Source: Vermamoeba vermiformis (Eukaryota). Taken from it: a stretch of 64,000 nucleotides of DNA. This document shows, piece by piece, positions 20,047 to 52,798 of this stretch. The position numbers were made by a program, and so were the translations under genes. A model generated the notes under the pieces. That model was not told the DNA's origin. It saw only the letters and a program-made list of their open reading frames with translations, and searched no databases. Location: the NCBI GenBank assembly GCA_045837725.1, contig JBEWZL010000282.1:62001-126000 (forward strand), given 5' to 3'. Within the stretch, counting starts at the first letter, position 1; each line of letters starts with the position of its first letter.

Positions 20047-20277
20047 TCGAAATAAAATCTTTTGTCTCGATCGAGGAGATAGATAGATGCTGGATGTAGG
20101 TTGCAAAGGATTGAAAGGCTAAGAAAACGATTGCTCACGGATCTATTTGGCTTTTAATATGCACGCGTCCATTAAGATGAGGTTACATGAGGCGTGTAAC
20201 AATAAAAATGGAAAGAAAAAATTGCGACGCGATATCGCTAAAAAAGGCGAGATTCGCTGAAGCTACTTAATAGTTGT

Positions 20278-21971: not shown

Positions 21972-22146
21972 GGCAAGTCTTAAATTTAGTTGAAAGCCTG
22001 CAACTATAATTAATTCTGTTACGTTTGAGGTGAGCAAAACGAAAAAAGCTCTCTCCCGCGTTTAGTCAAATTCTGATTTATTTTGGTGATATCGCCAAAT
22101 TTTAGTGAGACTGAGAGGCGAACGGGTTCCGAGATAACAGTATGGT

Positions 22147-23789
22147 TTATATTAATTTGTAAATATGAGTCAAATGTGCCTGAATTTCGGGCAGTACAGG
22201 TACATATGTACGCACAAGGCGAGTTAGCTTCGGCAATTGCTTTAGGCTTAGAGCTCTTGTTTTATCGACTTTATCGTTGATAGTAAGATCTTCCAAGCCG
22301 CTAAGTCTAGTTATTTCATTCCAAAAATCTTTGGTGCGACGAGGTTCGTACAAACACTTCAGATCTGTTTTCGTTACGAGGCCTAAGTCCGTATCTTCAT
22401 TGACTACATATAAATGTGTAAGCCTTGTTAATGCGTCCAAACCAGCGATTCTCGCGTCAACACCAGTTACTAGGACATTCAGATGTAAACGTTCCAGATT
22501 GGTGAGATCCCCTAACGTGAATCCAAGCTTTAACGGTCTCGAATGTTGTATCGAGAGCTTTTTAAGCTTCGTCAGCGTTGATACGAACAAGTGGTCAGTA
22601 CTTTCGTTTTGAAGCAATTGTAGTGACGTCAAGTTGATTAGCTGAGTTAAAAAGTCTGCATTTTTGGTATTCCTAAACTTAGCGCTTTCTACGGTGATTA
22701 ATCGGGAGATATGCTCTGTGATTTCTAAACTCTTTGAGGTCAATATAAGCCGGGTGAGATGCATTGAACCAACGAATGAAGCAAACGCCGTGTCAATGTT
22801 GTTACAGGTAAATGTCAGATCTTCGAGACGTGTCAACGCTGTCAAATATTCCATCGGTTCAATCGCACGATCGCCAGTAAAATCAATAGCTAACGACTTC
22901 AGTTTTGTCAGAGAGGCCAAGTCGGTTAAGGAGGTTGCCGTCGATGTTTGAAATTTCAGTCTTGTCAACTTTGGACTGAATAATCTATCCTCCAATGACA
23001 GTATTTTGGGTCTGCCAGTTTGCACCAAACTTTCTAAATTTGGTAATAAGCTGTGCGGAAATTGCTGGTGACTATTCCAGGACAAACGTTGAAGGCCTGT
23101 TAAACGCGTCACGGCGTCGAGTTCGAGCATAATTGCGCCATACATGTTAACAGCCAATGACGTCAGTTTTCCGGGAAATTTCAGTAATTCGAAGACTTGT
23201 ACATCTAGGGGCTCATGAGAGCCTGCTCGTTGAGTCAACTCCATTTTGAGACTTTGCAAATTCGTCAGACTTGGTAACAATGGTAAGATGTTCCGATAAA
23301 ATCCATCAATCCAAGCCAGGTTAGGCAAGTGCGGCATTAATTCTTGTTGCACTCTACTTCTATCAGGGAAAATATCCAGTCTTTTTAAATTGGTCAAAGT
23401 CGTCAAGCGGATCCAACTTGCAATAGGGAGGTAATAGTCTTGATCAGGGATAATAAACTTCGTTAAGTTCGTCAAACGAGATATTTCAAGCAGTTCTGTG
23501 AATGTGTCTGAAGGGCCAATGTTTTTGAAGTTCGTTTTGGACAAAGTAAGACCGATCGGATGCGTTAATTTTGATAACTTGTCAATAACTTCCGATAATT
23601 GATCTCTCGTCACGAAATTAATATTAAAATTGTTGATTATGATAATCTTTTGCCATTCGGTGCATACTACGCGGCAATTCAGTCTAGATCTGCCATCCAA
23701 AAAATCCAAAATTTGCTTGGTGATTTCCAGCGGCAAAAAATCCTACAAAAATATGCATAAATATCAAAATTAATTAAAATTATGATGAT
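22147..23789 (-). CDS. F-box/LRR protein, copy 3 (intact)
   Basis: ATG|gtaaga intron then DFLPLEITKQILDFLD F-box and a 529-aa LRR ORF. Clear paralogue of copy 2. Confidence 0.9.
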
Positions 23790-26039: not shown

Positions 26040-28000
26040 ATGTCAGCAGATCTGATCGCGAAAGCTGAAGAATACGCCAAGCTGTATTACGACGTATTAT
26101 TAAAGGATGTCGTGCCATTTTGGCTTAAAAATAGTATTGATACTAAATATGGAGGCTATTTTACTTGCTTAGACCGAGACGGTAAGATCTCTCATTGAAT
26201 TCAAAAAATGCCTACTAAAATCAATTAATATGCAGGCAAGGTATTCGAAACAGATAAATTTATGTGGTGAGTATCATAATAACAAAATAATATTTGATTG
26301 CCCGGAGCGCAAAGATATTTTTTACGAGAGGATCTAGTTTTGACATTTCGTTTAGGTTGCAAGGCCGTGAAGTCTATATGTTCTCTAAGCTATATGTAGA
26401 GCTTAAAAATCAATATCCGACTGAAGCTGAAGAATGGCTTAAGGCTGCAAAACTTGGTGCTGAATTTTTGAAGCAACGCGGATGTGACAGCAACGGCCGG
26501 TTTTATTTTTCAGTTACTAGAAAAGGCGAGCCTATAGTACAACCTTATTCTATATTTAGGTACGACTAAGGATACTATAATTTGAACTAATTTTAAATAG
26601 TGATTGTTTTGCTGCAATTGCATTTGGCGCTTATTTTATGGCGAGTGGCGAGCAATGGGCCAAAGAATTAACGACAAAAATTTATACAAACATTCAAGCG
26701 ATCAAATCCAATCCTAAAGGTCAATACAACAAATTATTCCCTGGCACTCGGTAAGTCCCCTGAAGAGAATTTTTTTTGACACTTTGACACGTGTCACAAG
26801 CTCCGCCATCATTGCGACGAAATAGTTTCCTTATTTGCACAAACAATGAGACAAGGTGTCAAAAAATGACACGTGCCGTCATGAACTAATTTTTGCAATG
26901 TTTTTGTAGTGACCTCACAGGCCTCAGTTTGCCAATGATCGATCTCAATTTAAGTCTCGAATTATTGCACTTAATACCCGAAGAAAAAGACATGTTCACC
27001 AAACGCGCCGTGGACAACATAAATTACATCAGTACGTATCAAACGAAATTTATTACCATAAAAGGAAATTACTAACGAATCATATGATCGTAGTGAATAC
27101 TTTCGTCGATCAAAAGCGAAATTTGTTGCGTGAAAATGCGTTCATTGGTGAACGAAAAGATTCGGAGGACGATCCGATGGATCATTTTGAGGGTCGTGTT
27201 GTGAACCCTGGCCACGTCTTAGAGGTGAGTCATATCAAACAGTTGTTATTAATACTAATAGTACCCGACAAGGCCTTATGGTTCTTAATGACCGCAGCTC
27301 ATGATTTGAAGCACACGGGTCGGATTGACAGCGACAAGTTGATCGGTCAGTGTGGCTCGATTATGTTAAGTACGCTGGACTTTGGCTGGGACAAACAGTA
27401 CGGCGGAATATTTTACTTTTTGGACGTTGATAACAAGCCTACGCAACAACTTGAATGGGATCAGAAACTTTGGTACGGAGCTTTTGGTTGTGCCACGTGT
27501 CATGACGCAATTTTTTCACCGGTCAACTTGACACGTGTCATTTATTATCCTCCGTTGATCAGTTCATAGTGATGCAATCGTTCATGAAATTATTGTTTGA
27601 CGTAGATTAAGGAGCTCGAAGTGACACGTGTCAAGTTTATTCGTTCACTAGAGCTAATCTTATCTTCAGGTGGGTACACTTTGAAGCACTATATGCAGTA
27701 GCCTTTGCGTTCTATTTGACGGAAAAAGAAGAATTCGCGCAATGGTATCATAAACTGCACGAGTACTTGTGGTCCAAGTTCTACGATCCACCTCACGGCG
27801 AAGTACGTCGGTTATTTCTCTCTTAACAATCAAAATGATATAGTAATTATGTATAATAGTTCTGGGGCTATTTGAATCGTCGCGGCGAAGTCTTGTTGGA
27901 ATTGAAAGGCGGCAAATGGAAAGGATTCTTCCACGTCCCGCGCGCTTTGTTATTGCTCGCTCAGGTCTTTGAAAAGATCCAAAAAATACAGAAAAAATAA
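26040..28000 (+). CDS. RENBP: N-acylglucosamine 2-epimerase (AGE/renin-binding protein family)
   Basis: [63 protein letters not shown] and [12 protein letters not shown]. Confidence 0.9.
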
Positions 28001-33981: not shown

Positions 33982-36268
33982 ATGTCGGGATTGATAAATT
34001 TGCCAACGGAGCTGTTGGACTTGATCGTCAGCTGTGGATTGGACCTACTCGACTTGGGCGCGTTATTCTTGACGTCAAAAGAGTCCAAAATAAAATTCTC
34101 TGATGTAAGACTGCAGCAAATATTCATGGATAATACATCGTACGTACGAGCAAGCATAAAATAACGTTAATAAATTTTTAAAATTATTTTTTCGTTTAGT
34201 ATTCCTTAAGACCCAATAATTGCCTATACCAGACTTTTCAATATATTTTGTAACTGATTTAATTTTAAAAAATAGACTAAGGCTTAGGAGTCCTAAAACC
34301 GGCGCCAACCTCCGTACTAGTTTTGTAGATAGTGTAGCACGAGTACGGCCATTTGAAATGTAGGATAATGATAACATTGTTCGATAGAAATGCATTCATA
34401 GCAATGATCCAACGGGCATTGAAGTTTGCTTCGGAAAAAAGCGGATTTCGTCAGCGATCTCAAGTTTATTTACGACAACTTCGTCGTCTCTATTCTCGGG
34501 TCTTAATCGATTAGACTTTTCGAAGGAAATATTTGATAAAGACGCCGATTTGGTCTTATCCTACGTTATTCAAGTAAGTTTCTTAAAAATAGTTTAGCCG
34601 GATCTGATCTAACGTTCCTTGCAGTATTTTCTCGCTAATATTCCTGAAAGAGCGAATAGAGCCAAAGAAATTATCCCTCTAGTCACTCAATTAGCAGAAA
34701 GCTTTATTCAATTTCAAAAACCGACCTTTGAGAAACATTTGAACGAAGTGCTGGTACACAAAAAGACCTTGTTAGTCGTACTAGATTTCTTCAACAACGA
34801 ATTTGGTATTGTATTTGGCTGGTTGGGCATAGATTCATCTTATCAGATCGGACCGGTAAGTTCATCCTAGTAGACGTTACAACTCCACTCTTAATTTAGC
34901 TCATTTATTTATACTCGCAATCAATACACGTAACTATGACTAAGACATACTGTGCATTTAAGGGCGATATCGCCTTTTTTTCAGGTCATATGACCAGCGC
35001 ATTTTTCCAGTACAAAAATTTGACCTCGTTTGAAACTAGGCCGAAACTCCGCCTGCCAAAGCTATTTTGAGATGTTTCGATAAATACCCGAAATACTCCG
35101 GTAATATGAATCAGGCTTTGGTCGATGTTGGAATGAGCAACAAAAATTTGAAGAGTGGATCCAAGGTACTTTTGAACGCTAATTGTAACTGCTACAATGA
35201 AGTACTTATATGATATGTATACAGGTGACACTTCTCGAGTACACGTGTCTCACCGGATCAATTCGAATGTTCAATATTGCTTTACAACACGGAGCCGAGT
35301 TCGACAAGAGCAAGCCTTACCTTCCTTTGCTATTAGCCGCGAACAAATTAGAAACAATAGAATTCTTGGAACAATTGGTTAAAATGGGCGCTGGTGGGTA
35401 TCATAATATTATTATTGCTATCTGGATACTTAAATATAGTACTATTGTCAGATTTCAACGTACCAATTCCCTCGGCAATTTTCAACGAAGAAATTTATGC
35501 GGCTATTGGAGAATCAACTTCGATTCTAAATTACTTCGCTTGCAAGACAGATGATGATACTAATACGTAAGCTATTAAGATCTATAACTAGGACTAAGTT
35601 TACTTTTTAGCCCCGTGATCGAGTACATTCTTTCGAAGGGCGGAAAATTGCTGCCTCCCGAACTTGAAGCGAATTTAAAAGAAGAACCAAATAGTATTAG
35701 ATATCGTGTAGCTAAAGCTAGTCAAATCGAGAGTTATCATTCATTCAATAGAGCTGTGTAAGAGATCCGTTACAAAACAGAAATTTCAGGACAAACTTTC
35801 TAATTACTTTATATCGACAGTAAATTGGAAATAATGGAAGAAATGCTACAAAATAATAAGGCACTAGTATTTAGCGATGAAAAAGAGGTCATGGTAAAGC
35901 TGAAGATGGATCTGGTCGAAGGTCAAAAACGCTACAAATTCTCTCTTGGTCAGCCGAGCATCTTTAAAGGCTTCTGGCATATCGAAAATAATTTCTTGGT
36001 ATGTAAGGCTGATAGAAAGAAAAGTACCCGGTACATACCCACCAAAACGAGATCCACTCGAATTCTTCAACCTACTTATGCACAAATCGATCAAGTTTTT
36101 AAGTATAGACTCTTTCGGTAAGTCCTAGGAATCTGTATATCAATATATTGAGTGTATTAATAACATTCTACAAAGAACTTGGCTCGATCAGTTGGCGATC
36201 GTACCAGATTGCGACGACAACCTGTCCAAAGAGAAGCTATTCAACAAAATGGTATTATGCAAGCATAA
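33982..36268 (+). CDS. F-box protein with ankyrin-like repeats (multi-exon; 3' structure uncertain)
   Basis: N-terminal LINLPTELLDLI F-box, LLEYTCLTGSIRMFNIALQHGA and VIEYILSKGG ankyrin-like motifs. Confidence 0.6.
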
Positions 36269-36477
36269 ATAAATAAATGTTGTATTATAATATGCATTGT
36301 ATAAATAAAGAAGTTCAGAAACGGAGATACGGAGTGTAAAGAAGCGAGGTGCACTCCTTTCTACATTCGAACGGGCATTTATTGCTCACATAGAGCTACA
36401 ACGAATGACAATATTATTTACAATGCGTAACATATTTATACAAGCAGACACGTGACATGTGATTCTGCTCCGCCTCT

Positions 36478-36494
36478 TCATAGGAGCTTGTAAG
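36478..36494 (+). repeat. Left target-site duplication TCATAGGAGCTTGTAAG
   Basis: Identical to 43763-43779. Flanking bases differ on both sides. Confidence 0.95.
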
Positions 36495-36530
36495 GAAAAA
36501 AATGGGAGGACCACAACTGATTGGAACTAC

Positions 36531-39500
36531 ATGCACAAGCTCAAACTCAATGTAATCGTAAGTACTCTACTAACCCTTATTTTTGTAGGTCTGATCTTTC
36601 TCGAATCTCAACCAATTATTAACGAAAATTTAAATCTAACGAACAAACACCTCAAAAAATCGAATGTTGAATTCCCAAAGCATATTTGCCCAGGGATAAT
36701 TGAATTTCAAACTCTCTCTGTGGAGATGAGATCGAAACCTGAAAATCAAATAAATCGAAATTATCAAAAATACACCTTACTCTATACTTCATTAAAGTAT
36801 AATTATAAAATTACGAATATTAAATCTATTTTTAGACAGACAGGCCAAAAAACCGCAACACGATCTACGCTACTTGATCAAAATTATCGGCAATGGAAGA
36901 TTCAGACGTCATATGTTTTAGATCTTTCGAGAATCTTCTCAGCCGACAAGTATAATTTAAGTAAGAAAGACTCTTTAAATTTTGTAAGTTCAACGACCTT
37001 TAACCACACTATGAATAACAATAACAATCTCAAAGACTTCCTCGACGATGAAAACATGGGAGAAGCCCTGGCTAGCATGTTCCCGATCGATGTGATTGAT
37101 GACTCCATTGAGTCATCCTCGATTGAGGAGAAGTCTGATCGGGTGGAACCGATCAACCAAGAACACGCAGCGAAGAAGCGCAAGCTCGATCAGACCTCCT
37201 TCTTGATAACTGCAAAGGAGACTCGAGCTAACGCACCACCACCAAGAACGACGAAAGCTCCGGTATTTAAACCAAAGGCCAAAGAACCGAAGAACATCAA
37301 AGATCACGTCGAAGAGCAACGAAAACTGAACGACTTCCGAAACAAGCAACGCTCCTATGCTACCTCTTTCCACCGATTCTACGTGCCAACAGACAAGAAG
37401 ATCTACATTGACGTAGAAAAGCCCAATACCAACCAGATATTGAGAGAAGAACCCAACGATGCCGCTACACCCCCAAACCTGTATGATGGCTATTACTGGA
37501 TCGTAGTAGTGGGACTCGACGACAACTGGTCAAAGTCCCAACTCAAGCAAGTGTTTAAAACTACGCCGCAAGAAGTTGTTGCTGGAAGGATTGAGAAGCA
37601 AGGCAGAGACTGGTTCTTTCCCTTCCGTTCCCAAAAGAGTGCCCAACTAGCACGAGACAACGTCTTCGACAAACTGAAGGCAACGCCAATGAAACCTGCC
37701 CCTCTGGTTCGAGTACAACCTACCAAACCACAAGTTGTTAAAGAGGTGCTGATCCGCAAAGTCAAAACAAGAGATGCAGAAGGCGAACTCATCGAACAGA
37801 GCTGGGTTGGAAAACTCCCGATCAAGAGCATTACAATTCGACCGTCAAAAGCCCCAGGCAAAGAAGAGCTGAATAACATTTTCATCGAACTCGACGAACT
37901 CGAAGACCACAATGATATCTTCCTCTATGGTGGCCTCATCAGACTTAACCAGACTGACTACTCCATTGTTCCATGCTTCCCGCGCGAACGGATGCTCCAA
38001 GCATATCGAATTCCCAATGACCCCATGTGGTTGGATCACCAATGGGTGAAAGAGAGATTCGACCTCTTGCTTAATGGCATGTCAATCACAATTACCGAAG
38101 TTTTTGTACCAACGGAAGCAGATGGAAATGTTTCACAAAACGCCCTTGTTCTCTTCGAGACAGCAGAAGATGCACTAAAAGCTACCACACAGTTCTTCGC
38201 TTTCACTTGGGGACCAATGAAAGCCGAGGCGAATATCACGTTCCAATCGCCAATCTGGCAACGAAACAAGGTAAGCATAATTCTAAGCATAACTAATACA
38301 AATACTAACAATCCTATTATAGACCAGAAAGTAGCTCAGTACGAGCACAAATGCTACCAGAGTATAACACTGAAACTCTTTTTAACGAACGCAGACATCA
38401 TTTATATTTTATTACTATATACACACGTTAGACTACATTATATTAAAAACCAAATAAAGACACTACTTCTAGTTACATTATTGCTTCGTGCTTCGTCAAT
38501 TCCAATCCAGCTCGTTCAGTTCTTACATAGAATACCTACAGGCCAACGCAAACAAAGAGTAAGACACAACGCTAAGAAGCAACAATTAATAGATAACCGA
38601 GTGTCCCTTTACATTGATAATAAACTAGTATCAAGGCCAGCCCTATCCAAAATTAACAAAAAAAATGTAACCATATTAATAAAAAACGAACTAAAACTAA
38701 AACCAAACCAATACAGGGTAACCTTCAATAAGTACAATAAAAATATTTTTATTGCACTGAAACTTGTTGGTGGAAACAATCTTCTAAACAAGAAAATATT
38801 AGCCTACTTCGATAATGAATTTTATGAAGGAACAATTATACAAGCAAAAAAGAACTACAAATATACAATTAAATGGGACAATGGTGACGACAACTCTGAT
38901 ATCTACCTTCATCCGTATGACAACACTCATCAGCCACGTCATGATGCGTGGTTCCTTAAAGATGAAGAACCCATAACAATAGAAACTAATGAAATAAAGA
39001 TCGCATTCAAAAACATTAACGGTAAATTCAATGACATGATCTCAGACATCGAAAGTACAATGAGGGCAAACCGACTCGACTTTCTTTGTATCCAAGAACT
39101 GAAACTTAATTCTGAGCAGTACATTGAACCTATCCAAGGATACACAATGATTAAAAACCTAAAACCGCGCTCAATGATAGAGGACGAATATGTAGCACGT
39201 AAAACAGCCGAGATACAAAAACGGACAACTAACGACGATAAAAAGGAACACGACATCAAAATGATACTCAAAGACAAGGCAAAAGATAAAGGGGGAGTGG
39301 CTATCCTCCTCCGAAACTGCTGGGAACCATTTATTCAAGAAGTTATTAAAGACGATATCGAACACCGTTTCATTCATATAAGGCTTCGCATTAATAACAA
39401 TGACATATGGATAACAAACATATATGCACACAGCGACGGTACTATAACTGAAAAAGAAGCTCTTTTCGACAGAGTTTTAGAAATTAATAGCGGTAACCTG

Positions 39501-41975
39501 ATCTCGGAAAATTTGCGTATAATAGGGGGTGACTTCAATTGCATATACGAAAAAAGAGATCGAATCAGCTACAGTAAGAAGAACAAAACATTCGAGGCAG
39601 CTTTACAACCAAGCATAGCAAAAAAATTAGAAACCAACTACTTCATTGACGTATATCGCTCAATGAACCCTTTAAAGAAAGGTTTCACACACTATACTAA
39701 TAACATAAATAACCCATCAATCGATAATATATACCTCAACAAAGCCAGAATAGACTATGTATATATCAACGACGAAAAGATTGACCATGTTATTGATAGC
39801 AAAGTTGAAAAAAAGAATGACTATATAGAATCAGACCATAGACTACTAATAACATCAATTAAATCAATAAATGCGATCTCATTAACAAGTGCACCTACCC
39901 GGCAATTCATCAACACAAGAGAACTTAACCGCGACAAGGTACAACAAGCGGTCAAAGACATAAGTGAGAGTAACGCATCAATTCTGAATATTAGCCTGAA
40001 CGATAACATTAAGAGTATGAATAAGACTCTTAAAAACTGGGCTGCAAAGCTCAGAGCAAAATTCCAAAAAGAAAACAAGCGACGAGAACAAAAGAAAATC
40101 GATAAACGATTGCTCCCGATAAAGAAAGCACTACGGCATATTAATAATATTATTATGCTTCATAATAAAAATGAGAAGTCGCAAGGCTTGTTTACAAGTA
40201 AATTAAATAAGATCCTCAACAAGTTTGATTATGACAACATCAAAATTGAACTCGATTTCAATATATTAAATAATATCAGAAATCGCTTGACTAAGGAACG
40301 TAAAAAGATAATGTGCGTCATCAAGAAAGATGAAATTAATGAACGAATACGGAGAAGGCTACAGATCCGAGACCATAACTTCAGCCAGTACATTCGACTA
40401 ATTTTTGGAAAAGACATGGGTACGGAAATAAACTTCATAAAAGAGAATGATGAAATTCTTACCTCGAAAGAAGATATTAAGCGAGTAATCCAACAATACT
40501 GGGAAAAAATGTTAACCACGAAAACAGGCGCCAACAATGAACCAAAAGCATGGCTCCAAAAAGAAATTGCCATTGAGTATAGCCCAGACCTAATGAGAGA
40601 AATAACATTAGAAGAGTTAAAAGCAACTATTGAGCGAATGAACAACCATAAGTCACCAGGACCGGACAACATCCCGGTGGATCTAATCAAACTCTTCTCA
40701 GATAATGAATTAGGCCAATACGTAACCTTGATGAATAACTGCCTTAGAGATGGAGATATTCCCAATGAGTGGCGAAAAGGTACGATCCGGCTTATTCACA
40801 AAGACGGAAACAGGGGCGAGCCAGGTAACTATCGTCCAATCACTCTCCTGCAAACCACGTACAAAATATTCAGTACTATTATAAGAGATAGATTAACTGA
40901 CTATTGTGAAACAAACAAACTATTTTCTAATTATCAGACAGGATTTCGTAAAAATAAAAGTGCGCACGATAATATTACCATTCTAAAAGCAATAATCGAG
41001 GACAGTAAATTAGGGAAAGAACTGAATATCACCTACCTAGACTTTAAAAAGGCTTACGACAGTGTGGAACATTGGGCAATTCGAGAAGTGTTAGAATACT
41101 ACAAAGTTGATTTGCGATTAGTAAACTTAATCGAAAATATGTACAAAGACAACAAATTAAGAATTAACGTCAATAACGAATTAACGGACGAATTCAATTG
41201 CAATCGAGGGGTAAAACAAGGAGATGGCCTTTCGCCATTAATATTTTTAATCTTCATAAACCCCATCCTAACCTTAATTGAAGAGAAACACAAAGGATAT
41301 GCATTCTATAACAACGAAGAACTTACAATTCCTCTACTGGCCTTCGCAGACGATGTCGCGCTCATCTCTGATAACTTCGAACAAATCAAAGAGATGAATA
41401 AATTAATAGAGCAGTTCTCGTTAACATATGGTATCAAGATTAACCATAACAAGTCAGCGTTCACTAGCAACAACCTACATAACAATACAATTAATTACTA
41501 CGGAAAAAATATTAAATACAATAGACCGGACGAAAGCTATAAGTATCTAGGACTATTTGTTAACCTCAATAATGACGACAGCGAGTCGCAAGCCCATTAC
41601 GTGGCAAAGACTCGTCAAAGACTTAATATAATTAAACGTAAAAAACTCAATATTAATCTCAAAGTGGAACTTGTCAAAAAAGTCATTTATCCGTGCATTC
41701 AATACTTAATGCCAGTAATATTAATTGATAGTGTTAAAGCAAATGAACTAAATGAGGAAATAATGCACATAATAAAATATACAATACCGATCCGCCGCAA
41801 TTCAAATAACGAACAGTTCTACTTACCCCGAGAACTCGGTGGTCTTAACCTCCCACCAATAGCTGATTTAAACAAAAAAATACTATGCAAACACTTCTTT
41901 GAACGGGGCCTTAACGGAGACCAAAAAATACTTACGCAAGTTATTTATTTTAGTCTACTTAAATATATGGTTTAA
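36531..41975 (+). CDS. Retrotransposon polyprotein: hydrophobic leader - RRM-type ORF1 - LKLVGG - Tudor-like - APE endonuclease - reverse transcriptase
   Basis: APE motifs NING, CIQE, GGVAILL, NIYA, GDFN, RIDY and SDH. RT motifs KSPGPD, NYRPITLL, QTGFR, LDFKKAYDSV, GVKQGDGLSP, FADD, YKYLG and LPRELGGL. First in-element in-frame ATG is 36531. Confidence 0.92.
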   Translation: MHKLKLNVIVSTLLTLIFVGLIFLESQPIINENLNLTNKHLKKSNVEFPKHICPGIIEFQTLSVEMRSKPENQINRNYQKYTLLYTSLKYNYKITNIKSIFRQTGQKTATRSTLLDQNYRQWKIQTSYVLDLSRIFSADKYNLSKKDSLNFVSSTTFNHTMNNNNNLKDFLDDENMGEALASMFPIDVIDDSIESSSIEEKSDRVEPINQEHAAKKRKLDQTSFLITAKETRANAPPPRTTKAPVFKPKAKEPKNIKDHVEEQRKLNDFRNKQRSYATSFHRFYVPTDKKIYIDVEKPNTNQILREEPNDAATPPNLYDGYYWIVVVGLDDNWSKSQLKQVFKTTPQEVVAGRIEKQGRDWFFPFRSQKSAQLARDNVFDKLKATPMKPAPLVRVQPTKPQVVKEVLIRKVKTRDAEGELIEQSWVGKLPIKSITIRPSKAPGKEELNNIFIELDELEDHNDIFLYGGLIRLNQTDYSIVPCFPRERMLQAYRIPNDPMWLDHQWVKERFDLLLNGMSITITEVFVPTEADGNVSQNALVLFETAEDALKATTQFFAFTWGPMKAEANITFQSPIWQRNKVSIILSITNTNTNNPIIDQKVAQYEHKCYQSITLKLFLTNADIIYILLLYTHVRLHYIKNQIKTLLLVTLLLRASSIPIQLVQFLHRIPTGQRKQRVRHNAKKQQLIDNRVSLYIDNKLVSRPALSKINKKNVTILIKNELKLKPNQYRVTFNKYNKNIFIALKLVGGNNLLNKKILAYFDNEFYEGTIIQAKKNYKYTIKWDNGDDNSDIYLHPYDNTHQPRHDAWFLKDEEPITIETNEIKIAFKNINGKFNDMISDIESTMRANRLDFLCIQELKLNSEQYIEPIQGYTMIKNLKPRSMIEDEYVARKTAEIQKRTTNDDKKEHDIKMILKDKAKDKGGVAILLRNCWEPFIQEVIKDDIEHRFIHIRLRINNNDIWITNIYAHSDGTITEKEALFDRVLEINSGNLISENLRIIGGDFNCIYEKRDRISYSKKNKTFEAALQPSIAKKLETNYFIDVYRSMNPLKKGFTHYTNNINNPSIDNIYLNKARIDYVYINDEKIDHVIDSKVEKKNDYIESDHRLLITSIKSINAISLTSAPTRQFINTRELNRDKVQQAVKDISESNASILNISLNDNIKSMNKTLKNWAAKLRAKFQKENKRREQKKIDKRLLPIKKALRHINNIIMLHNKNEKSQGLFTSKLNKILNKFDYDNIKIELDFNILNNIRNRLTKERKKIMCVIKKDEINERIRRRLQIRDHNFSQYIRLIFGKDMGTEINFIKENDEILTSKEDIKRVIQQYWEKMLTTKTGANNEPKAWLQKEIAIEYSPDLMREITLEELKATIERMNNHKSPGPDNIPVDLIKLFSDNELGQYVTLMNNCLRDGDIPNEWRKGTIRLIHKDGNRGEPGNYRPITLLQTTYKIFSTIIRDRLTDYCETNKLFSNYQTGFRKNKSAHDNITILKAIIEDSKLGKELNITYLDFKKAYDSVEHWAIREVLEYYKVDLRLVNLIENMYKDNKLRINVNNELTDEFNCNRGVKQGDGLSPLIFLIFINPILTLIEEKHKGYAFYNNEELTIPLLAFADDVALISDNFEQIKEMNKLIEQFSLTYGIKINHNKSAFTSNNLHNNTINYYGKNIKYNRPDESYKYLGLFVNLNNDDSESQAHYVAKTRQRLNIIKRKKLNINLKVELVKKVIYPCIQYLMPVILIDSVKANELNEEIMHIIKYTIPIRRNSNNEQFYLPRELGGLNLPPIADLNKKILCKHFFERGLNGDQKILTQVIYFSLLKYMV
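37011..38334 (+). CDS. Predicted spliced ORF1 protein (37011-38270 + 38323-38334, 423 aa), RRM-like nucleic-acid-binding protein
   Basis: GC-richer block starting at ATG 37011. RRM-like segments WIVVVGLDDNWSKSQLKQVF...WFFPFRSQKSAQLA and ALVLFETAEDALKA. Ends RNK|TRK* if intron 38271-38322 is removed. Confidence 0.55.
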
Positions 41976-43638
41976 TAGTAAGTGGCCTAAAGGAAAAATT
42001 ATCGGAGAATCAATAGAGCATAAAATATTCAACATCGTAAGAGAAAATAATATAGAAATAAAAGATTCGGAGGACGATCCAACAGATCTCGCAAAGTACA
42101 TCCCTAATGTACCACTGGTCGATAAATTGAAACGCATCAATGTACAAAAAACAAGTAACTTAATCTCTAAAACATACGAACAATATGGTAACTGGCTAAT
42201 AGGAATTGTAGAAATTAATAGTCGGGCAAGAGACGAGACTGAGAGAATAACCCTTGATGAATACAATACTATCAAGAATATTTTATGCACTCGTAATACA
42301 ACTATATTCAAAGAACATATCCCAATAGAACGGAAAACAAAAAGAATAATGCTAGAAAACGGACCGATAAAAATTAACGATAGAGTCGCAATATGGACAG
42401 ACGGATCTTATGACAAAAAAACAAATAAGGCCGCCTTTGCTGTGTGGTATAATACAAATCGTTTTATACAGCAAAGAACGAATGACGACCAAAATATCTT
42501 CCAATCCGAATTGGAAGCTATTGAAAAAGCTCTTAAAACATCCCGCGAATTTAATAAGATAATTATATTCACGGACTCACTCAGCGCTATTAATCTAATT
42601 CAACAAATAACGAAAAATAAACTAACAAAAAAACACTTACACGGAAAATACCATCCGATCATTAATCGACTAGCGAAACAACTGAAGCGTCGAGACGTGA
42701 TCTTCGAACACATACCTAGTCATATAAATAAGAAGTTAGCAAAATTAGAGAACGAGAAAGAGCACAGTAAAAAACAGAAATTACTGTCACGATTGAAAGA
42801 GCTAGAAAATAAATACGGCGCAATACTTGCCCATATAATAAACGGAAATGAAACGGTAGATAAACTAGCGGTAGAAGCAAAAGACTTACCACTAAACCGC
42901 AAAAAGCCCAAAGGAATGAAAAGGTTCGTATTTGAAATTGAGGAGATAATAACAACGGCTCCGATCGATGTCCTAATAAAAAATAATCAGACTCAGCACC
43001 ACAAAGAAACTATTAAAAATAAGAAGTCCAAAAAGGACCGAGAAATACATCTAAACCAACAAAAACTAATAGACCATGAATCGTCGCGAGAGGTACTCTC
43101 ACAAAATGATTCTATGGTTAATTTCGTATGGAAACTAAGGAATAAACAACTCAATGGCAAAGCAGAAATGACCCGAAAGATCAGAAAAACAGGAGAGGAT
43201 CGAGATAACCTCCGTTTAAAAGAACTATACCAGGACACTATATGTATATTCTGTAATCACGATAAAGAAAATACGGAACATATTCTGAATTTTTGCCCTG
43301 AATGGGACATAGCCCGTTCCGAGATGCACGAAGAAATTAAAAATTATTTAGGCAATATTAAAGTTAACGATTGGACAGATAGAAAAATAAATGATAACGA
43401 AGAAAAAAAGATATGCTCTTTTGGATACTTTCCAAAGAGCGTACGAATAGAAATTAAAAAACAAATAAAAAATAAAAAATTAATCCACAAAAAATGCTCA
43501 GACCTCTTTTACATTCATATGAAACACCTCCGTATAATTTATCGAGAACGATGTAAAAGATATTTTGAGTACTTACGTGATAAATTCCATGATAATAAAG
43601 AGATCCTCCAGAGGAGCAGATCAAAGGACTATGGCTAA
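41899..43638 (+). CDS. Retrotransposon C-terminal part: RNase H and CCHC zinc finger (+1 frame relative to RT)
   Basis: IWTDGS, ELEAI, IIFTDS, HIPSH and GNETVDKLA (RNase H); CIFC...ENTEHILNFC (finger). Confidence 0.9.
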   Translation: MNGALTETKKYLRKLFILVYLNIWFNSKWPKGKIIGESIEHKIFNIVRENNIEIKDSEDDPTDLAKYIPNVPLVDKLKRINVQKTSNLISKTYEQYGNWLIGIVEINSRARDETERITLDEYNTIKNILCTRNTTIFKEHIPIERKTKRIMLENGPIKINDRVAIWTDGSYDKKTNKAAFAVWYNTNRFIQQRTNDDQNIFQSELEAIEKALKTSREFNKIIIFTDSLSAINLIQQITKNKLTKKHLHGKYHPIINRLAKQLKRRDVIFEHIPSHINKKLAKLENEKEHSKKQKLLSRLKELENKYGAILAHIINGNETVDKLAVEAKDLPLNRKKPKGMKRFVFEIEEIITTAPIDVLIKNNQTQHHKETIKNKKSKKDREIHLNQQKLIDHESSREVLSQNDSMVNFVWKLRNKQLNGKAEMTRKIRKTGEDRDNLRLKELYQDTICIFCNHDKENTEHILNFCPEWDIARSEMHEEIKNYLGNIKVNDWTDRKINDNEEKKICSFGYFPKSVRIEIKKQIKNKKLIHKKCSDLFYIHMKHLRIIYRERCKRYFEYLRDKFHDNKEILQRSRSKDYG

Positions 43639-43762
43639 AAACTGTGACGACTGAGGGAAAAGAGCGTTCGCACATGAATAATACCTCGGAAATGAGGTTG
43701 TCTCTTTTCGACTCTGACTTAACTAACAATTAAGTCAAAAGAAAAAAACTAAACTAAACTAA

Positions 43763-43779
43763 TCATAGGAGCTTGTAAG
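43763..43779 (+). repeat. Right target-site duplication TCATAGGAGCTTGTAAG
   Basis: Identical to 36478-36494 and directly follows the AAAAAAACTAAACTAAACTAA tail. Confidence 0.95.
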
Positions 43780-43854
43780 TTGCGGCGAAATTTTTATGCG
43801 ATTTTGCGTCCGTGGATAACACAAATAAGACAATATTATTGAGTAAATAACAAA

Positions 43855-45373
43855 ATGGATATCGATAGCCCAAGCGAAGGAGTTCCGCTGGAGATGTGGA
43901 ACGCCATCTTGCATTTTTTGGATTGTCAAACCTTAGCCGTGGCTCAGCGCGTTTGCAAAGATTTTTATCATTTGTCTGTACGAGAAGAACATTGGAAAAA
44001 AGAAGCGTTAGCCTTATTCTCATCGGTAATATTAATTTTTTCGATTTTTTTCGAATTGAATAAAATTCCGAATACTGATTTTCTGAAAATAGAATATCAC
44101 GCCTTATTTTACAGAAAAATACAGCTCTAACGCGAGTTGGCGAAAGTTAATTAAAGATATTAAACGTAAGTCGCTTACAAAAGCAGATCGTAGATGCAGC
44201 TTATTCAAAATTTTTACAGAACACGATATGTCCGGTTCCTGGGAGATATATATACGTCTAGACGATCATTTTGACGTATTTACTATTTTTGGTCGCTGGG
44301 AAATCACGAATAACTCGTCCCGCTTTTGCAGCAAAATTCTTCATGGATTTGGCAATGCCCCGTGGGGACCTTTCTCGACAATAGGCTGTAATATAGGCCC
44401 TCATTATTCTCTACTCCATACATATAACGAAGGAGCATATTATTCAAGTAAGCCACCAAAAGAAAAGGTCACGCGACGATCGGATCTGAAAGTAACATTT
44501 CCTTTTTAGGTTACATTGGTACCATTGATGAAGATGCTAAGACTAAGGCTAAAATACTATATGGACCTTATAAAACGAACTGGTAAGGGCTAGTAACTGA
44601 AAAAATATGTCGAAAAAGTTCTGACCGGATCTATTTCCTTATTAGGGAAGACTTAACTGGTTCATTTGTTGCTATAAATACTTCTACGACATTAGACCGC
44701 AAGCAAGTAATCGAAATTTTACGCGAGCGACTCCACAAAGTTAGTAGAACTCGAGATGAAAAATGTACGTCCAAAAATATTCATTACAAATTATTCTAAT
44801 GAACTTTGGTTATTATATAGATGACGAAATATTATCAAAATTAGCAGGAAAATTATTTGAAGTATCATTTACAGCTGATGAAGCCTGTTTGGTATGTCAC
44901 ATCCGAGATCAAATCCATAACTTTCATGAAATTTGCTTTACTTATTATTATTTTTATTATAGAAGGACGACAATATGCCTGAAAAGTTCAAATTTACCTT
45001 TAGATTGAACTACAGCACCAATAAGAAAGGTCTTAAAGGATTCATCGTGACAACGGATCGCGGATTCGTTCCAATGGCGCTAATCAAGTCGTCGTTAGTA
45101 TTAGGTACTATACTAGATAATATGATACAAGTATCGTTTGTTGTTTGGAAAGCACAACATTCTTATACTACAATAACGGCACTGTTCAATTTCGAATTGT
45201 CCGAAAAGCAAGTTGAAATGTCCGAGAACGGCGTTATTACCAAACAAAATATTTGCAATATTATGCTGGATGGTAGCTATGTTTGGAGCGATAATAATGA
45301 CCCGTTAAATTACGGCAAAGTTATCGGACATTCAATCGATGACAAAAGCTCAACAAACAATCGACGAAAATAA
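43855..45373 (+). CDS. F-box protein (multi-exon)
   Basis: VPLEMWNAILHFLDCQTLAVAQRVCKDFYHL..EEHWK F-box. Downstream exons have GT-AG junctions. Confidence 0.8.
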
Positions 45374-45409: not shown

Positions 45410-47013
45410 TTAATAATTATGACGGCGCGTCAGTGTTTTTATTGCGTTATGAACCAATTGAAAAACAGGCTTTGAATCTTCTTGTTGGAATTTCGCTTGT
45501 AAAGTGAATACTTGCTCTAATACCTCCGAATAATCTCTATATTCGTATCCAGGTACTCGTATAAATTTGAAGATTTGGAGCCAGATCTCTAGTGGGAACA
45601 GATCCAGAGATTCGGATCGGCGAGCAAGATTCCAAATCGTAAGTATCATATTCAAGTTTGCTTTATGTTGCTTCCTTCTATTCCTCGTGAGATGTCTTGC
45701 TATTAAGGTACTAACTGAATTTTCTTCGTCAATTTTCGTAGCACTGAACTCGATCTTGTTCAACGCGCTGTCGATCTGGCAGCGCATTAATTCAATCAAA
45801 CTCTCGTGCGATGGTATATCATTGTCTTTAATATTCAGATGCGTTAGTGTGCTATTTTCATAGAGTCCTTCAATAATCTTGCTTAGGCCAAAAGACCGAA
45901 GTTGGTTGTGCGACAGATCCAGATGTAGCAACGTTTTGTTTTTCTTCAATACTTCGCAAAGTGCATATGCCCCGTTAGTTGGAATAGGACATAAGCTCAT
46001 ATTCAAGCTTCGTATTATTTGGTTTGATATTAAGGCTTCTTGAAGTTGTTTTGAAATTTGCGGATCTTCGAACAGATCTGACGCCATGCTGAGCGATGTA
46101 ATTGACTTGTTTGTAGTTATTAATTCTATTAATGAATTCGTGGAATTTCTGTTGAAGCTATTTTTGAGAATATTTAATTCGGTCAATGTTGAATTGCAGC
46201 TTTAATCCTTCGACCAGTGCGACACATCCGTCTTCAGACTTGTATCCACTTTCAACTAATTCTAATATTCGTAATGTGCTATTTATCTTGAGCATGTCGC
46301 CTATACTCTTCCAAGCGTCGTATTCAAGCGTGTTGTAACTCAGATCGAGTTTCGTAATGGATGTGTTTTTCGTCAAAGCGTTGCATAATCGAATACATCC
46401 TTCATTTTCTATTTGGTTGCCTTGTAATATTAACGTGGTCAATGTCCTATTGTGATTCTCTATAACTTCGCTGATAAAACTAAGTCCTTTGTCTTCGATC
46501 GAGCTGCCATCCAAAAAATTCAGTATTTTTATCGTCTTATTGACTTTAATTAATTCCGCGAAATATTTGCATGAATTAGGCTTGACGCTGCCTAGAGCCA
46601 GCTCGGTAATCGATTGATTTTCTTTCAATGTTTCGGCTAGCAAAAAACACCATTCTTTGCGAAACATGAACTCTATATATAATGTCTTGACTATAGTACT
46701 GTTCCTTATAGTATTGCAAGCAAAGCACCAATCATCCGTCGACAACGAACCAAGATCTCGTGGACCAAGGTAAATAAAATCTGTTGCAAGACCTTCTGGC
46801 CGTCGCTCTTTAATTAATTTAGCTAATTCACTCGTGTAAGATGGTATATTCTAACGAAATAATGATTAATGACGGATCCAAAAATTTTGATTTTTTTCGA
46901 TCTCAAATAATTCCCTTAATTTAATTCGAACTCATATTAATAAAATACTGTTGCAATTGGTATCCATAGTATATGGTAATTGTTAATATAATATTTACCT
47001 CAGTGTTGGACAT
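45410..47013 (-). CDS. RNI-like (NLRC3-type) LRR protein with C-terminal F-box-like motif; +1 frameshift near 46200
   Basis: NxTLxxLxLxxN 28-aa repeats in ORFs 46158-46745 and 45410-46186, and LDLFPLEIWLQIFKFI near the C-terminus. Confidence 0.8.
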
Positions 47014-47258
47014 TTTGTTCAGATATTTTTCTCCATCCAATTCCATTATCGGTCTTAAACTTGAGTTCGAGGTTACCAAGCAGCATTATTATAGTGTAAT
47101 CTTTTTTACACTAGTGTGGTTGTGCTGTTATTGCAGACGCGAGAACAAAAAAAATCGTCTCGGTCGAAAATCAAGCTGACTGCGACACCATTAACTTAAA
47201 AGACATTTTATGTTTTTTTTGACACTTTTAATGACACTTTAGACATGCGAGTAAAATT

Positions 47259-49017
47259 TTATTCGAATACAACATCAGCGTGGATCCTGTTCTTCCTCAA
47301 GAAATTGAACCAAGACTTGTGCTTTTGAAACGTCATTAAGCTGCTGAAAATGCCTTTAAAGTAAACAGATTTCAGTTGTGGCATTGATTTCAAGAAACTT
47401 TTGATTTCTTCCTCGACGTCGGATCCGACCACTGGCGTTACGTCGCACAACGTGACTCGCTCCAAATTGCTTAATTTCGTTAAATAAGGCATTATATTTT
47501 CATTGGTTGAATTTGACTCTTCTAATGAAAGTTCTCTGATTGTTAGTGGCAAATTGCAATTTTCTTTGATCAGCTCCGTTATGAAGGATCCGTGTAACGA
47601 CAATGACTGTAGGTTTGTCAATTTCAATAAAGCTCGTATATTCTCGTTTGTATAATCGATGCTGCCAACTGACAATTTCTTCAGTTGTTCCGCGTTTGGT
47701 GGCAAAATGAAACTTCCTCGGATCTTGAACGTTGTAAGGTTCGGAAAATTGCTTAGGAATGCTTCTGAGACATTTGAGAGGTATCTAAGTGATAAGTACT
47801 TGACTTGCGGCATTTTGAATGTCAAATCGACTGTTTTGGATTTAAAATAGGTGCCTATCTCCAGCTGCGTCAGATGTTGGAAATTTTGTAGCGAATTAAT
47901 TTCTTCGAATTCTGCGTCGAATAACTTCAGTGCTTCGAGTTGCGTTAATTGAGACATCTCCATAACATAACCGTTGCTATTAATCTGCAATCTTTTCAGT
48001 TTTGTAAATAGATCGAACATGGGTCTTTGAGGAACGCCTTTCGGGATCTGTACAATGCAGCGCAAGTCCGTTAAGTGCTTAAAAGCTGTAATATATTCTA
48101 CTAAGAACGGACTGCAATTTATGAACAAAGACCGCAAGCCAGTCAATCTTGTAAATTGGCCAAATGAGTCCCTACAAGCAGTGGATCCGTTAGTATTGTT
48201 TTGAACTCAGTCATAAATGTTATTCTATGCCATTGAACGTACTCGTCTGCCCACTTGCATTCAGGAATCGATAATTTTCGGAGATTAGTAAGGTACCCGA
48301 TCGCCGCTACAAAAACTAGATCAGCCAAAAAGGTCATATAGAAGAGCTTATACTTACGTAAAATCATCGCAGTAGAATTAATATCAAATCTCAGTTCTTC
48401 AAGAGCGGTCAAGTACTGCACATATTGAGATAAATCTTGGGTAAAAGAGACTGGCGTCAAAAAAAATTAGTCATGATCGTTAAAATCATATTCGTTACCA
48501 TTATTATAGCATAATCTCTTTAATGACGAAAATCGAGTCAAAATGCTCGGCTTCAAGTCGAATCCAACGATAGGGTATTGGGGAAAAACGAGTTCTCGAA
48601 GCCAACCTCCAGTATTGCGAAAATCTCTGCACACTAAATAATATAAGCAACATAACAATATTGGGCGTGGTCAATACCTTCATTAAAGTGTATTTTGACC
48701 GACAAAGTGCATCTCTGATAAATCTCCGTTTGAAGCTCGACAGGAAGGTCCAAAAAATACTCAACTACCATAAATGATACGTAAGTAAAATATTAACTAT
48801 TATATAGATGAAATTAATTTTATTGAATTTTTCTGCGTTAAGATCAGATCGTCGACCTGTCTGAATCAGATTCGCCTCTCAGTTGCCTCGTATAATAATA
48901 TAACTTACATTTTTCGTTGAACAGGGCGTCATCTTCATCGTCCTCCGTTTTACGGTGCTTATTTGGCTGGTCCTTCTCTTCGTCGAGCTTTCTCTTGCGG
49001 GAACTTCGCGTCTGCAT
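47259..49017 (-). CDS. F-box/LRR-type protein (multi-exon)
   Basis: Basic N-terminus RKRKLDE, LVCRDF F-box-like segment and LRRs in ORF 47259-48146. Confidence 0.7.
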
Positions 49018-51373: not shown

Positions 51374-52798
51374 TTAGCTTATAGTACACCCTTTTGTATT
51401 GCCAGCGGCTAAGCCGAGAGCTTCAATAGCCCTTGTTAGTCGCGTTTTCGTCTTAGTCAGTTCTAGCAACTAAAGGAAAATCGTTAGAAAAAGATCCGCC
51501 GCTGTTTTGAAGGAACAAATCCCGAAAAAGAAAAATTTTTAGATTGCTTTTGATCTATGAGATATAATTACGATACTCGCGTCCGTTAGATTGTCTACGA
51601 AAGTTTGACGGAGCGAGTATTGCGATCACGATTCGATTCAGCAAGATCAACCTACGTCGCGCGACTTTTGGCCAAATACAGTTATATCGCTGCAAAGACC
51701 CCTTATCACGCTCCATAGGCCAATCTTACCGCATATAAACGAATTTGTATAATGTAGATAGATTTAGTGTACTTACGTCTTGTTTTTGTTTGTGAGGCAC
51801 GCTGAGGATAGACGAAATCCAAAACGAGAATGCTTTAGGACGAGCAGGCATAGTACCAAATCGCTGAGTAAGGTCAGCCATCGTCACAACTTCAGTATTG
51901 CCGGTCTCTGGCGCACTAGCATTGGCTAAATATTTGTTCAATGTTCTCTTAGCTTTGGCGACTTGCACGACGTTATCTGAACTCTCTTCTTCATCTTCAT
52001 CGTCAATATATTTAACTTTAGCCGTAGTGTATCCGTCTTGTTGGCCAAAGGATAAGACTTTGAACCGCCGATCTCCGCGAGTCACGAGGATTTGTCGCCC
52101 ATCTGGAAGAACGTTGCTTGATTCAATGACTGTCGTTGTTCCTATCTTGCTTGGCTCGCCGTTGACATTCAATAGAACACCAAAGGTCCTTGTTCCTTCA
52201 AGACAGCGGCGGACCATAAGACGATAACGTGGCTCGAAGACGTGGAGGTGTAATGGCATTCCAGGGAACAGAACATAGTCTAACATGAATATAGGCAGCT
52301 GGAAAGTGTGGTCGCGCATTGATTGAGCCTCTGATAATCGTTGCTTATACTCATCGGCAAAACACTTTTGAATTATTGTCGAGACTAATACATTGATTGC
52401 GTGGTCTGGTAGCATATGTACTGTAGATCTGCACATTGGGCTGTATTAAATACGAATTAATTTTGCACATTGACTAGGGTTTGAAAAGGGAATCCTACCA
52501 AGACGTGCTATGATCTAAAGCTCTAAACAAGTAAAAATTAATAATTAGGTTTAATAAATACGTGATGCATTATTACTAACCTTAATATACATTCGCGGCA
52601 ATATGTGTGGCCTACAAGGAAAAAAAAACGAATTATTAGCCAAATTGCAAAACACCGATGAGATCGGAGTATATTCGAAGGCATACCACAAGGCGTTGTT
52701 ACTGGCTCAAATAATAAACATTGGCACAAAGGACACATAAATTCTTCTTTGGATATGGTGGCTGACTCAGCAGCCGAAGACTTTGTTTCCACAGACAT
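51374..52798 (-). CDS. RING finger plus LON N-terminal substrate-binding domain protein (LONRF-like)
   Basis: CPLC..LFEPVTTPCGHTYCREC...CPMCR, then LPIF..VLFPGMPLHLHVFEPRYRLMVRRCL and LPDGR. Ends GCTIS*. Confidence 0.9.

Follow-up and report, generated by a model that had tools for sequence, protein, structure and literature searches.

A candidate ubiquitin-like unit with a diGly tail ahead of the endonuclease and reverse transcriptase of a LINE in Vermamoeba vermiformis

The window analysed here is a stretch of 64,000 nucleotides of Vermamoeba vermiformis DNA (assembly GCA_045837725.1, contig JBEWZL010000282.1, positions 62,001 to 126,000 of the forward strand), and all coordinates below count from its first letter. 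It carries a young, complete long interspersed nuclear element (LINE), that is, a retrotransposon without long terminal repeats (LTRs), of the type with an APE endonuclease (Table 1). A direct repeat brackets the 7268-bp unit with its A-rich 3' tail, which marks it as a complete and recent non-LTR insertion. The target-site duplication measures 16-17 bp, terminal repeats are lacking, and Pfam places the APE domain and then the reverse transcriptase (RT) domain on one strand. The AT skew over 36001-44000 is +0.20 to +0.30. Within the 64-kb window blastn and tblastn find no second copy, and in DNA contigs from a public sequencing run (X1) the element has a depth of 519-578 next to 420-560 for flanking pieces, so it is about single-copy there. 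The subject of this report is a short unit ending in LKLVGG just upstream of the enzymatic part of this element, which may be a degenerate ubiquitin-like domain at which a host enzyme could separate the enzyme from the protein upstream.

Much of the element is read in one stop-free frame (frame 0) of 1839 codons at 36456..41975, whose product is called P0001. It begins with a leader that has a hydrophobic N-terminal stretch (~36552-36602); over 36495-37055 frame 0 has no stop, and the other two frames have 16 each. The ORF1 body follows, for which Pfam returns no family at E up to 10, and then an interdomain zone that leads to a Tudor-like beta barrel, the APE domain and the RT domain.

The LKLVGG motif lies in this zone. 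Positions 38757-38774 (ctg aaa ctt gtt ggt gga) encode L768-K-L-V-G-G773, and the larger stretch 38595-38774 encodes N714 to G773 with the final residues ...NKNIFIALKLVGG. An earlier note, made from the sequence alone, had placed this motif directly before the Tudor-APE-RT block. The nucleotide sequence and its translation bear this out: the barrel begins six residues past the GG and is followed by APE and RT. The tail of ubiquitin is LRLRGG, and LKLVGG agrees with it at five of six positions if K counts for R. The ubiquitin-type tail that the note had seen stands as a motif, but no ubiquitin-family sequence match accompanies it.

How often such a tail arises by chance was gauged with 20,000 shuffles of P0001; the figures are post hoc because the motif had been singled out by eye in a very large scan. 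Anywhere in the protein, 0.00245 of the shuffles contain the strict pattern L[KR]L.GG, and within residues 606-845, the 240-residue interdomain zone, 0.00015 do. The looser [LIVMF][KR][LIVMF].GG appears in 0.023 and 0.0026, respectively. The general form hydrophobic-x-hydrophobic-x-GG is common: it is found in 0.14 of the shuffles, at three sites in P0001 and at 28 sites, mostly within APE and RT motifs, in the relatives of P0001, by which are meant the best 150 of 104,798 library proteins that match at E up to 0.001. The strict pattern does not occur in these 150 relatives.

Table 1. Features of the LINE and their positions in the window.
Feature	Position	Strand	Evidence or remark
Non-LTR (LINE) retrotransposon, full-length	36495..43762	+	7268 bp, A-rich sense strand, bracketed by target-site duplication
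5' target-site duplication, (T)CATAGGAGCTTGTAAG	36478..36494	+	same 16-17 bases at 43763-43779
Leader open reading frame (ORF), frame 0, from first in-frame ATG	36531..36983	+	no stops; translation
Intron 1, 52 nt, GTAAGT...AG	36984..37035	+	joint 36983>37036 in X5 contig, not in X1 DNA contigs
ORF1 body, M201-K605 of P0001	37056..38270	+	spliced-form ORF 37056..38334
Intron 2, 52 nt, GTAAGC...TACTAAC...TAG	38271..38322	+	X5 joint 38268>38321, fits 2 bases further right too
ORF1 stop TAG	38332..38334	+	in frame only once intron 2 is removed
AATAAA, candidate poly(A) signal for a short ORF1-only transcript (putative use)	38453..38458	+	
Hydrophobic, signal-peptide-like segment IKTLLLVTLLLRASSIPIQLVQFL, I667-L690	38454..38525	+	best 15-residue Kyte-Doolittle mean 1.96
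Candidate ubiquitin-like (beta-grasp) unit N714-G773	38595..38774	+	single-sequence AlphaFold, VIA-align
LKLVGG tail; diGly G772-G773 at 38769-38774; proposed cut after 38774	38757..38774	+	
Tudor-like beta barrel, residues ~778-820	38787..38915	+	sub-threshold Pfam, AlphaFold strands, structural neighbours
APE endonuclease domain, residues 853-1106	39012..39773	+	PF03372, E 3.3e-06
Reverse transcriptase domain, residues 1447-1700	40794..41555	+	PF00078, E 1.3e-38
Frame-0 stop TAA	41973..41975	+	reading goes on in +1 frame
+1-frame ORF with RNase H and C-terminal zinc-binding region	41872..43638	+	Pfam
3' target-site duplication	43763..43779	+	A-rich (TAAAC)-like tail just before

Whether the unit ending in LKLVGG is ever joined to ORF1 depends on splicing, which was followed in public sequencing runs compared over 36300-43900. 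Besides the DNA contigs of X1 these were X5 and X6, runs guessed to be RNA, and X10, raw RNA-seq reads. Contigs of X5 at least 99% identical to the window contain two sense GT..AG joints, neither of which is in the X1 DNA contigs; the contig with the intron-2 joint has a depth of 18.2, and TACTAAC in intron 2 is a branch-point-like word. Both introns shift the frame because each is 52 nt long. When intron 2 is retained it is read through in frame 0 without a stop, and when it is removed ORF1 reads ...Q-R-N-K/T-R-K-stop (the slash marks the joint), with its tail at 38323-38334. The spliced RNA encodes ORF1 alone, and the fusion of ORF1 to ORF2 (the frame that carries APE and RT) is present only in unspliced, intron-retaining RNA. 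The fused leader/ORF1 precursor of the earlier note can thus exist only if intron 2 is retained.

The X5 contigs, which cannot show transcript ends or amounts, cover 36896-38393 in the sense direction and have zero coverage over 38586-40617, which puts the end of coverage between 38393 and 38585. The spliced RNA may thus end early, near the AATAAA in Table 1. In the X10 data 25 reads part from the window at 38269 and run on into the letters past the intron, with the identical TAG among them. These reads are less than 90% alike to the window and so come from a diverged family member (the run has the same species label as the source).

The frame itself is open across the junction. Frame 0 runs through 38271-38790 without a stop, as against 23 and 13 stops in the other frames. 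ORF2 lacks an in-frame ATG from 38271 to 39036, a position inside APE and ~700 nt past the ORF1 stop. Codon-usage likelihood favours frame 0 only mildly, with a tie with another frame in 38325-38594. Frameshifting by -1 was considered as a route to the fusion and rejected, as the overlap of ORF1 and ORF2 (38070-38400 of the spliced form) has no slippery heptamer of the form X XXY YYZ. The inserted genomic copy keeps both introns, so the RNA that transposed was unspliced. Translation of this intron-retaining genomic RNA into an ORF1-ORF2 polyprotein is the simplest and most likely reading. One observation weighs against it: the diverged expressed member likewise ends ORF1 at a stop, so that separate ORFs may be what normally occurs, ORF2 being started by another route. 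The leader's openness could also reflect a separate upstream ORF, as the spliced form, too, leaves it open over 182 codons.

A fused precursor would call for a means of separation. The earlier note had seen neither a protease nor a 2A motif in the element; likewise, its Pfam matches include no protease family, and a regular-expression scan of all three sense frames finds no 2A (NPGP) motif.

Structure prediction gives the candidate unit a shape. A single-sequence AlphaFold run on residues 696-776 (81 residues) produced a best model with a mean predicted local distance difference test score (pLDDT) of 65.2 and a beta-beta-alpha-beta-beta order, with strands at 718-720 and 723-726, a helix at 735-746 and strands at 753-760 and 763-770, followed by V-G-G. 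In this model the diGly (772-773) stands just past the last predicted strand, and the chain continues as NNLL.... Comparison of the model with 48,161 solved chains by VIA-align gave as best neighbour the ubiquitin-like (Ubl) domain of USP7, at Z 4.7 and a root-mean-square deviation (rmsd) of 2.8 A over 63 residues. By a count from entry titles, about 46 of the best 50 rows are ubiquitin-like; they include ubiquitin, UBL, UBX, DWNN, SUMO, ISG15, FAT10, Atg12, PB1 and FERM-F1 entries, and they cover model residues ~18-81 at an rmsd of ~3 A over ~60 residues. This agreement among the neighbours is striking. A beta-grasp fold of N714-G773 is plausible on this modelling, short of established.

Several results pull the other way, both on the fold and on its use. 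The VIA Z scores of 3.5-4.7 are under the Z of 8 that the tool's note takes as meaningful, and Foldseek against the PDB gives no match at E up to 0.001; its weak rows hold a few ubiquitin entries at E 2-4 and template modelling (TM) scores of 0.36-0.39, mixed with unrelated ones. The other four of the five models of the 696-776 run reach only pLDDT 44-53. A 165-residue AlphaFold run (overall pLDDT 37.6) left the same residues unstructured at pLDDT ~30; for the beta-grasp fold that the earlier note had suggested looking for, the short run speaks in favour and the longer one against. The ubiquitin-like tail may itself have steered AlphaFold, whose model has no alignment behind it. At the level of sequence, Pfam shows no ubiquitin family at E up to 10 with three cuts of the region, the segment has no PDB sequence match at E up to 10, and BLASTP against the Ubl of P0008, a relative described below, reaches only E 0.16, though it aligns GG to GG. 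The ESM Atlas has no usable match for residues 690-850. The unit has 60 residues rather than 72-76 and is without ubiquitin's beta4/3-10 loop region. Recognition by ubiquitin-specific enzymes is doubtful for a unit that is this short and lacks that region.

Comparison with related elements is limited by distance. The nearest of the 150 relatives is only 35% identical, and alignment of the relatives to frame 0 begins at about residue 845, at APE, and reaches almost to the TAA at 41973-41975. None of 151 other proteins (the 150 relatives and the element's own P0002) aligns upstream of APE, which also counts against the proposal, and jackhmmer with the leader, ORF1, linker, Ubl candidate and Tudor pieces finds nothing among the same 151. 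Word-indexed searches with P0001 residues 640-1110 (near lengths) and 655-860 (shorter lengths) return nothing, and metagenome and viral-contig scans with window positions 38418-39785 and with P0008 find no relative.

One distant relative supplies a precedent. P0008 is a 2588-residue single-ORF LINE protein (from a JGI sequence of 7988 nt) that is 30% identical to P0001 over APE-RT. It contains a Pfam ubiquitin domain (PF00240, residues 861-929, E 1.3e-13) ending ...NLCGG933, and this GG lies 34 residues before APE, which starts at ~967. This broad LINE group thus does contain an instance of a GG-terminated ubiquitin unit shortly ahead of APE. The parts of P0008 run in the order N-terminal hydrophobic stretch, acidic/basic ORF1-like part, basic region, hydrophobic segment, Ubl-GG and APE, an order that mirrors that of the window element. 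The two differ in that P0008 has a clear Pfam ubiquitin of ~73 residues and no Tudor-like barrel after it, and its pre-APE part cannot be aligned to the window. A word-indexed search with P0008 residues 780-1290 and a jackhmmer search with its Ubl against 152 proteins find only P0008 itself; the ESM Atlas returns for a piece of P0008 only endonuclease clusters, with a score of 0.83 that serves as a lead only. A second relative, P0146, reads ...GKTIDSETPINQLQLLNNQTIDINMRIRGG and ends IDINMRIRGG four residues before APE; its likeness to the C-terminal half of ubiquitin is by eye only, and the 74-residue piece has no Pfam match at E up to 10. Eighteen of the 150 relatives have at least 30 residues upstream of APE, and a statistically supported Ubl in only one of these 18 is a further point against the proposal.

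The Tudor-like barrel matches six related Pfam families, Tudor_3, Tudor_5, MORC2 chromo-like and Agenet among them, at E 0.007-0.09, all below cut-offs. Among solved structures Spindlin-4 comes closest to it (Z 5.5, rmsd 1.3 A over 46 residues), with several Tudor entries next, in a part of the model where confidence is low (pLDDT ~56). Thirteen of the 18 relatives (P0003, P0008, P0009, P0016, P0019, P0021, P0022, P0024, P0028, P0038, P0043, P0065 and P0151) have a hydrophobic 15-mer upstream of APE, versus 8 of 248 equal-length downstream control blocks with one, and small residues often come next, with APE directly after. The window has two such stretches, one before the Ubl candidate (38454-38525) and one at the leader start. 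The pre-APE stretch may serve as a feature of the protein, or it may be a pyrimidine tract that is translated.

The best single reading of the locus, held tentatively and as somewhat short of probable, takes N714-G773 for a degenerate ubiquitin-like cleavage cassette: a host deubiquitinase (DUB) or Ubl protease would cut at its diGly and so release Tudor-APE-RT. Cleavage by the host is proposed because the frame is open, ORF2 has no ATG, the element has neither a protease nor a 2A motif, and the transposing RNA is unspliced. On this proposal the unspliced genomic RNA would present one giant frame that runs through the leader, ORF1, the retained intron, a hydrophobic and basic linker, the 60-residue unit ending in LKLVGG, the Tudor-like barrel, APE and RT. 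Loss of the 52-nt intron would leave spliced RNA for the ORF1 protein alone, and ORF2 would reach the ribosome as a fusion read from the intron-retaining RNA. The 60-residue unit would fold as a degenerate ubiquitin-like beta-grasp domain, and a cut at its tail by the host enzyme would give Tudor-APE-RT the new N-terminus NNLLNKK....

Possible too, if on the doubtful side, is that the motif arose by chance in a linker with little structure. The pre-barrel stretch would then be an N-terminal extension of ORF2, and ORF2 would be either an uncleaved fusion or a protein with its own start, by termination-reinitiation or from a non-AUG codon past the ORF1 stop of the spliced RNA. The lack of sequence similarity to ubiquitin, the unstructured region in the longer AlphaFold run, the weak VIA Z scores and the absence of a significant Foldseek match all suit this explanation, as do a motif chosen by eye from a very large scan, a general pattern with three sites in P0001 and a 14% chance of appearing in a shuffle, and an ORF1 stop in the spliced RNA as normal as in ordinary two-ORF LINEs. 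It fits poorly with the rarity of the strict tail in shuffles of the whole protein and its absence from the 150 relatives, with a set of structural neighbours of which ~46 of 50 belong to one fold class, and with the real ubiquitin domain at the matching place in P0008. It also has to reckon with the ~700 nt past the ORF1 stop that hold no in-frame ATG, and with the lack of a -1 slippery heptamer in the overlap. An unlikely variant accepts the same fold evidence (the 696-776 model and its VIA neighbours) and takes the unit for a real but uncleaved integral UBL, which would recruit a host partner or aid the folding of ORF2, its GG a leftover of its origin; partners could be the proteasome, UBA/UIM proteins or, together with the Tudor-like barrel, chromatin factors. 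Many of the VIA neighbours are indeed integral UBLs (USP7, USP11, TBCB/E, midnolin, SF3A1), and a unit without a profile match is too diverged for ubiquitin-specific enzymes. To our knowledge, however, integral UBLs as a rule have no terminal diGly, whereas here and in P0008 a GG stands exactly at the domain end, and an uncleaved unit would leave the fusion of the upstream ORF1 to the enzyme otherwise unexplained.

The least probable of these explanations, and a poor one in our judgement, moves the separation of ORF1 and ORF2 from the GG to the hydrophobic segment at 38454-38525. That segment would be a membrane anchor or signal-peptidase-type site, or else the pyrimidine tract of a second splice acceptor, for which CAG/ at 38510/38511 or 38519/38520 is a candidate that would join ORF1 to ORF2 in frame. 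The enrichment of the 15-mer in the relatives speaks for it, as do the small residues and directly following APE seen in many of them, and the window's TLLLVTLLLRASS resembles LLLLTLLPRASAS of P0151. Yet the window's segment lies 175 residues before APE instead of adjoining it, none of the runs has a joint to 38511 or 38520, and a signal-peptidase cut would presumably put the enzyme in the lumen of the endoplasmic reticulum, a place unfit for a nuclear enzyme.

The proposed diGly cut has counterparts in other systems. Natural ubiquitin fusion genes, such as those for polyubiquitin and for ubiquitin-ribosomal protein fusions, encode head-to-tail proteins that host enzymes cut after GG; these are host genes with canonical ubiquitin. 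The nearest working analogue is found in cytopathogenic pestiviruses (the bovine viral diarrhoea virus strains Osloss and CP1, and CP Rit), where, according to the passages of PMC8310069 on these strains, a ubiquitin insert is a polyprotein processing signal and cellular ubiquitin C-terminal hydrolases cut after it to create the N-terminus of NS3. As is proposed for the window, a ubiquitin unit stands directly upstream of an enzyme in a polyprotein. The pestivirus insert differs in being a near-identical host ubiquitin in an RNA virus with cleavage shown, whereas the LINE has a 60-residue unit with no detectable sequence match, for which cleavage is a proposal.

Among LINEs themselves, 2A-like sequences stand at the ORF2 N-terminus of APE-type elements of other clades; Odon et al. 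2013 (PMC3708506) propose that they split off an upstream product from a single ORF, which would permit the merger of ORF1 and ORF2. The place just upstream of APE and the proposed role are the same, but the 2A route works by ribosome skipping at NPG/P, and the window element has no such motif in its sense frames and no D(V/I)ExNPGP-type motif ahead of APE. PMC3708506 does not contain the words ubiquitin, signal or hydrophobic. The splicing has its parallel in the shGAG of Ty1/Copia elements, in which, according to Oberlin et al. 2017 (PMC5580714), splicing and early termination give a short RNA for the structural protein and the unspliced RNA is read as the whole polyprotein. The spliced contigs of the window likewise cover ORF1 and stop near the AATAAA, but Ty1/Copia are LTR elements with a protease of their own, whereas the LINE is without one and its early termination is putative. 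In a literature search that left subscription journals and Repbase reports mostly outside, no paper was found that describes non-LTR retrotransposons with a ubiquitin domain or an intron-retention ORF1-ORF2 fusion in LINEs, and nothing relevant on signal-peptide-like segments before LINE ORF2.

A wider and rather speculative possibility is that a LINE clade follows a programme like that of Gag and Gag-Pol with no protease of its own. A spliced, early-ending RNA would give ORF1, an intron-retaining RNA would give the polyprotein, and a captured ubiquitin cassette (canonical in P0008, a 60-residue mini beta-grasp in the window) would let host DUBs release the endonuclease-RT. Only for a few cases, such as reinitiation and 2A skipping, is it known how a LINE balances its ORF1 and ORF2 proteins and how single-ORF elements separate the two functions. 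If the proposal is true, a host-cut ubiquitin-type cassette would be a third route, and together with intron retention it would mirror retroviruses, pestiviruses and Ty1/Copia in another class of element. With P0008, a bona fide ubiquitin-APE-RT protein, the idea can be tested directly.

Downstream of RT the coding sequence continues past the frame-0 TAA in the +1 frame, which encodes an RNase H (42382-42732; PF00075, E 3.9e-13) and a C-terminal zinc-binding region at ~43105-43299, where zf-RVT matches at E 0.0018, below its cut-off. A GTAAGT stands at 41978-41983, directly after the TAA. The X1 DNA contigs are identical to the window across 41960-41985, so the frame break near 41973 is not an assembly slip; it may stem from a mutation, a programmed +1 shift or a further intron. 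Contigs of X5 and X6 also contain CT..AC joints at 40846-41036, 41098-41327 and 42712-42887, which point to spliced antisense transcripts over the part of the element that encodes RT and RNase H.

A 146-bp repeat that begins with TG and ends with CA (36335-36480) abuts the 5' target-site duplication. In X1 it is ~2x as deep as the element, in X5 (1541) and X6 (418) its depth is very high, and in other contigs it has different flanking sequence. Rfam at gathering scores finds no family in the window, this repeat included. The repeat resembles either a solo LTR or an expressed repeat of small size. In the host DNA around the element lie clustered F-box/LRR genes whose introns are short, one gene with a LON substrate-binding domain and an ORF similar to GlcNAc 2-epimerase, with spans at 18260-23742, 43857-44030, 45410-48206, 51726-52445 and 26913-27569.

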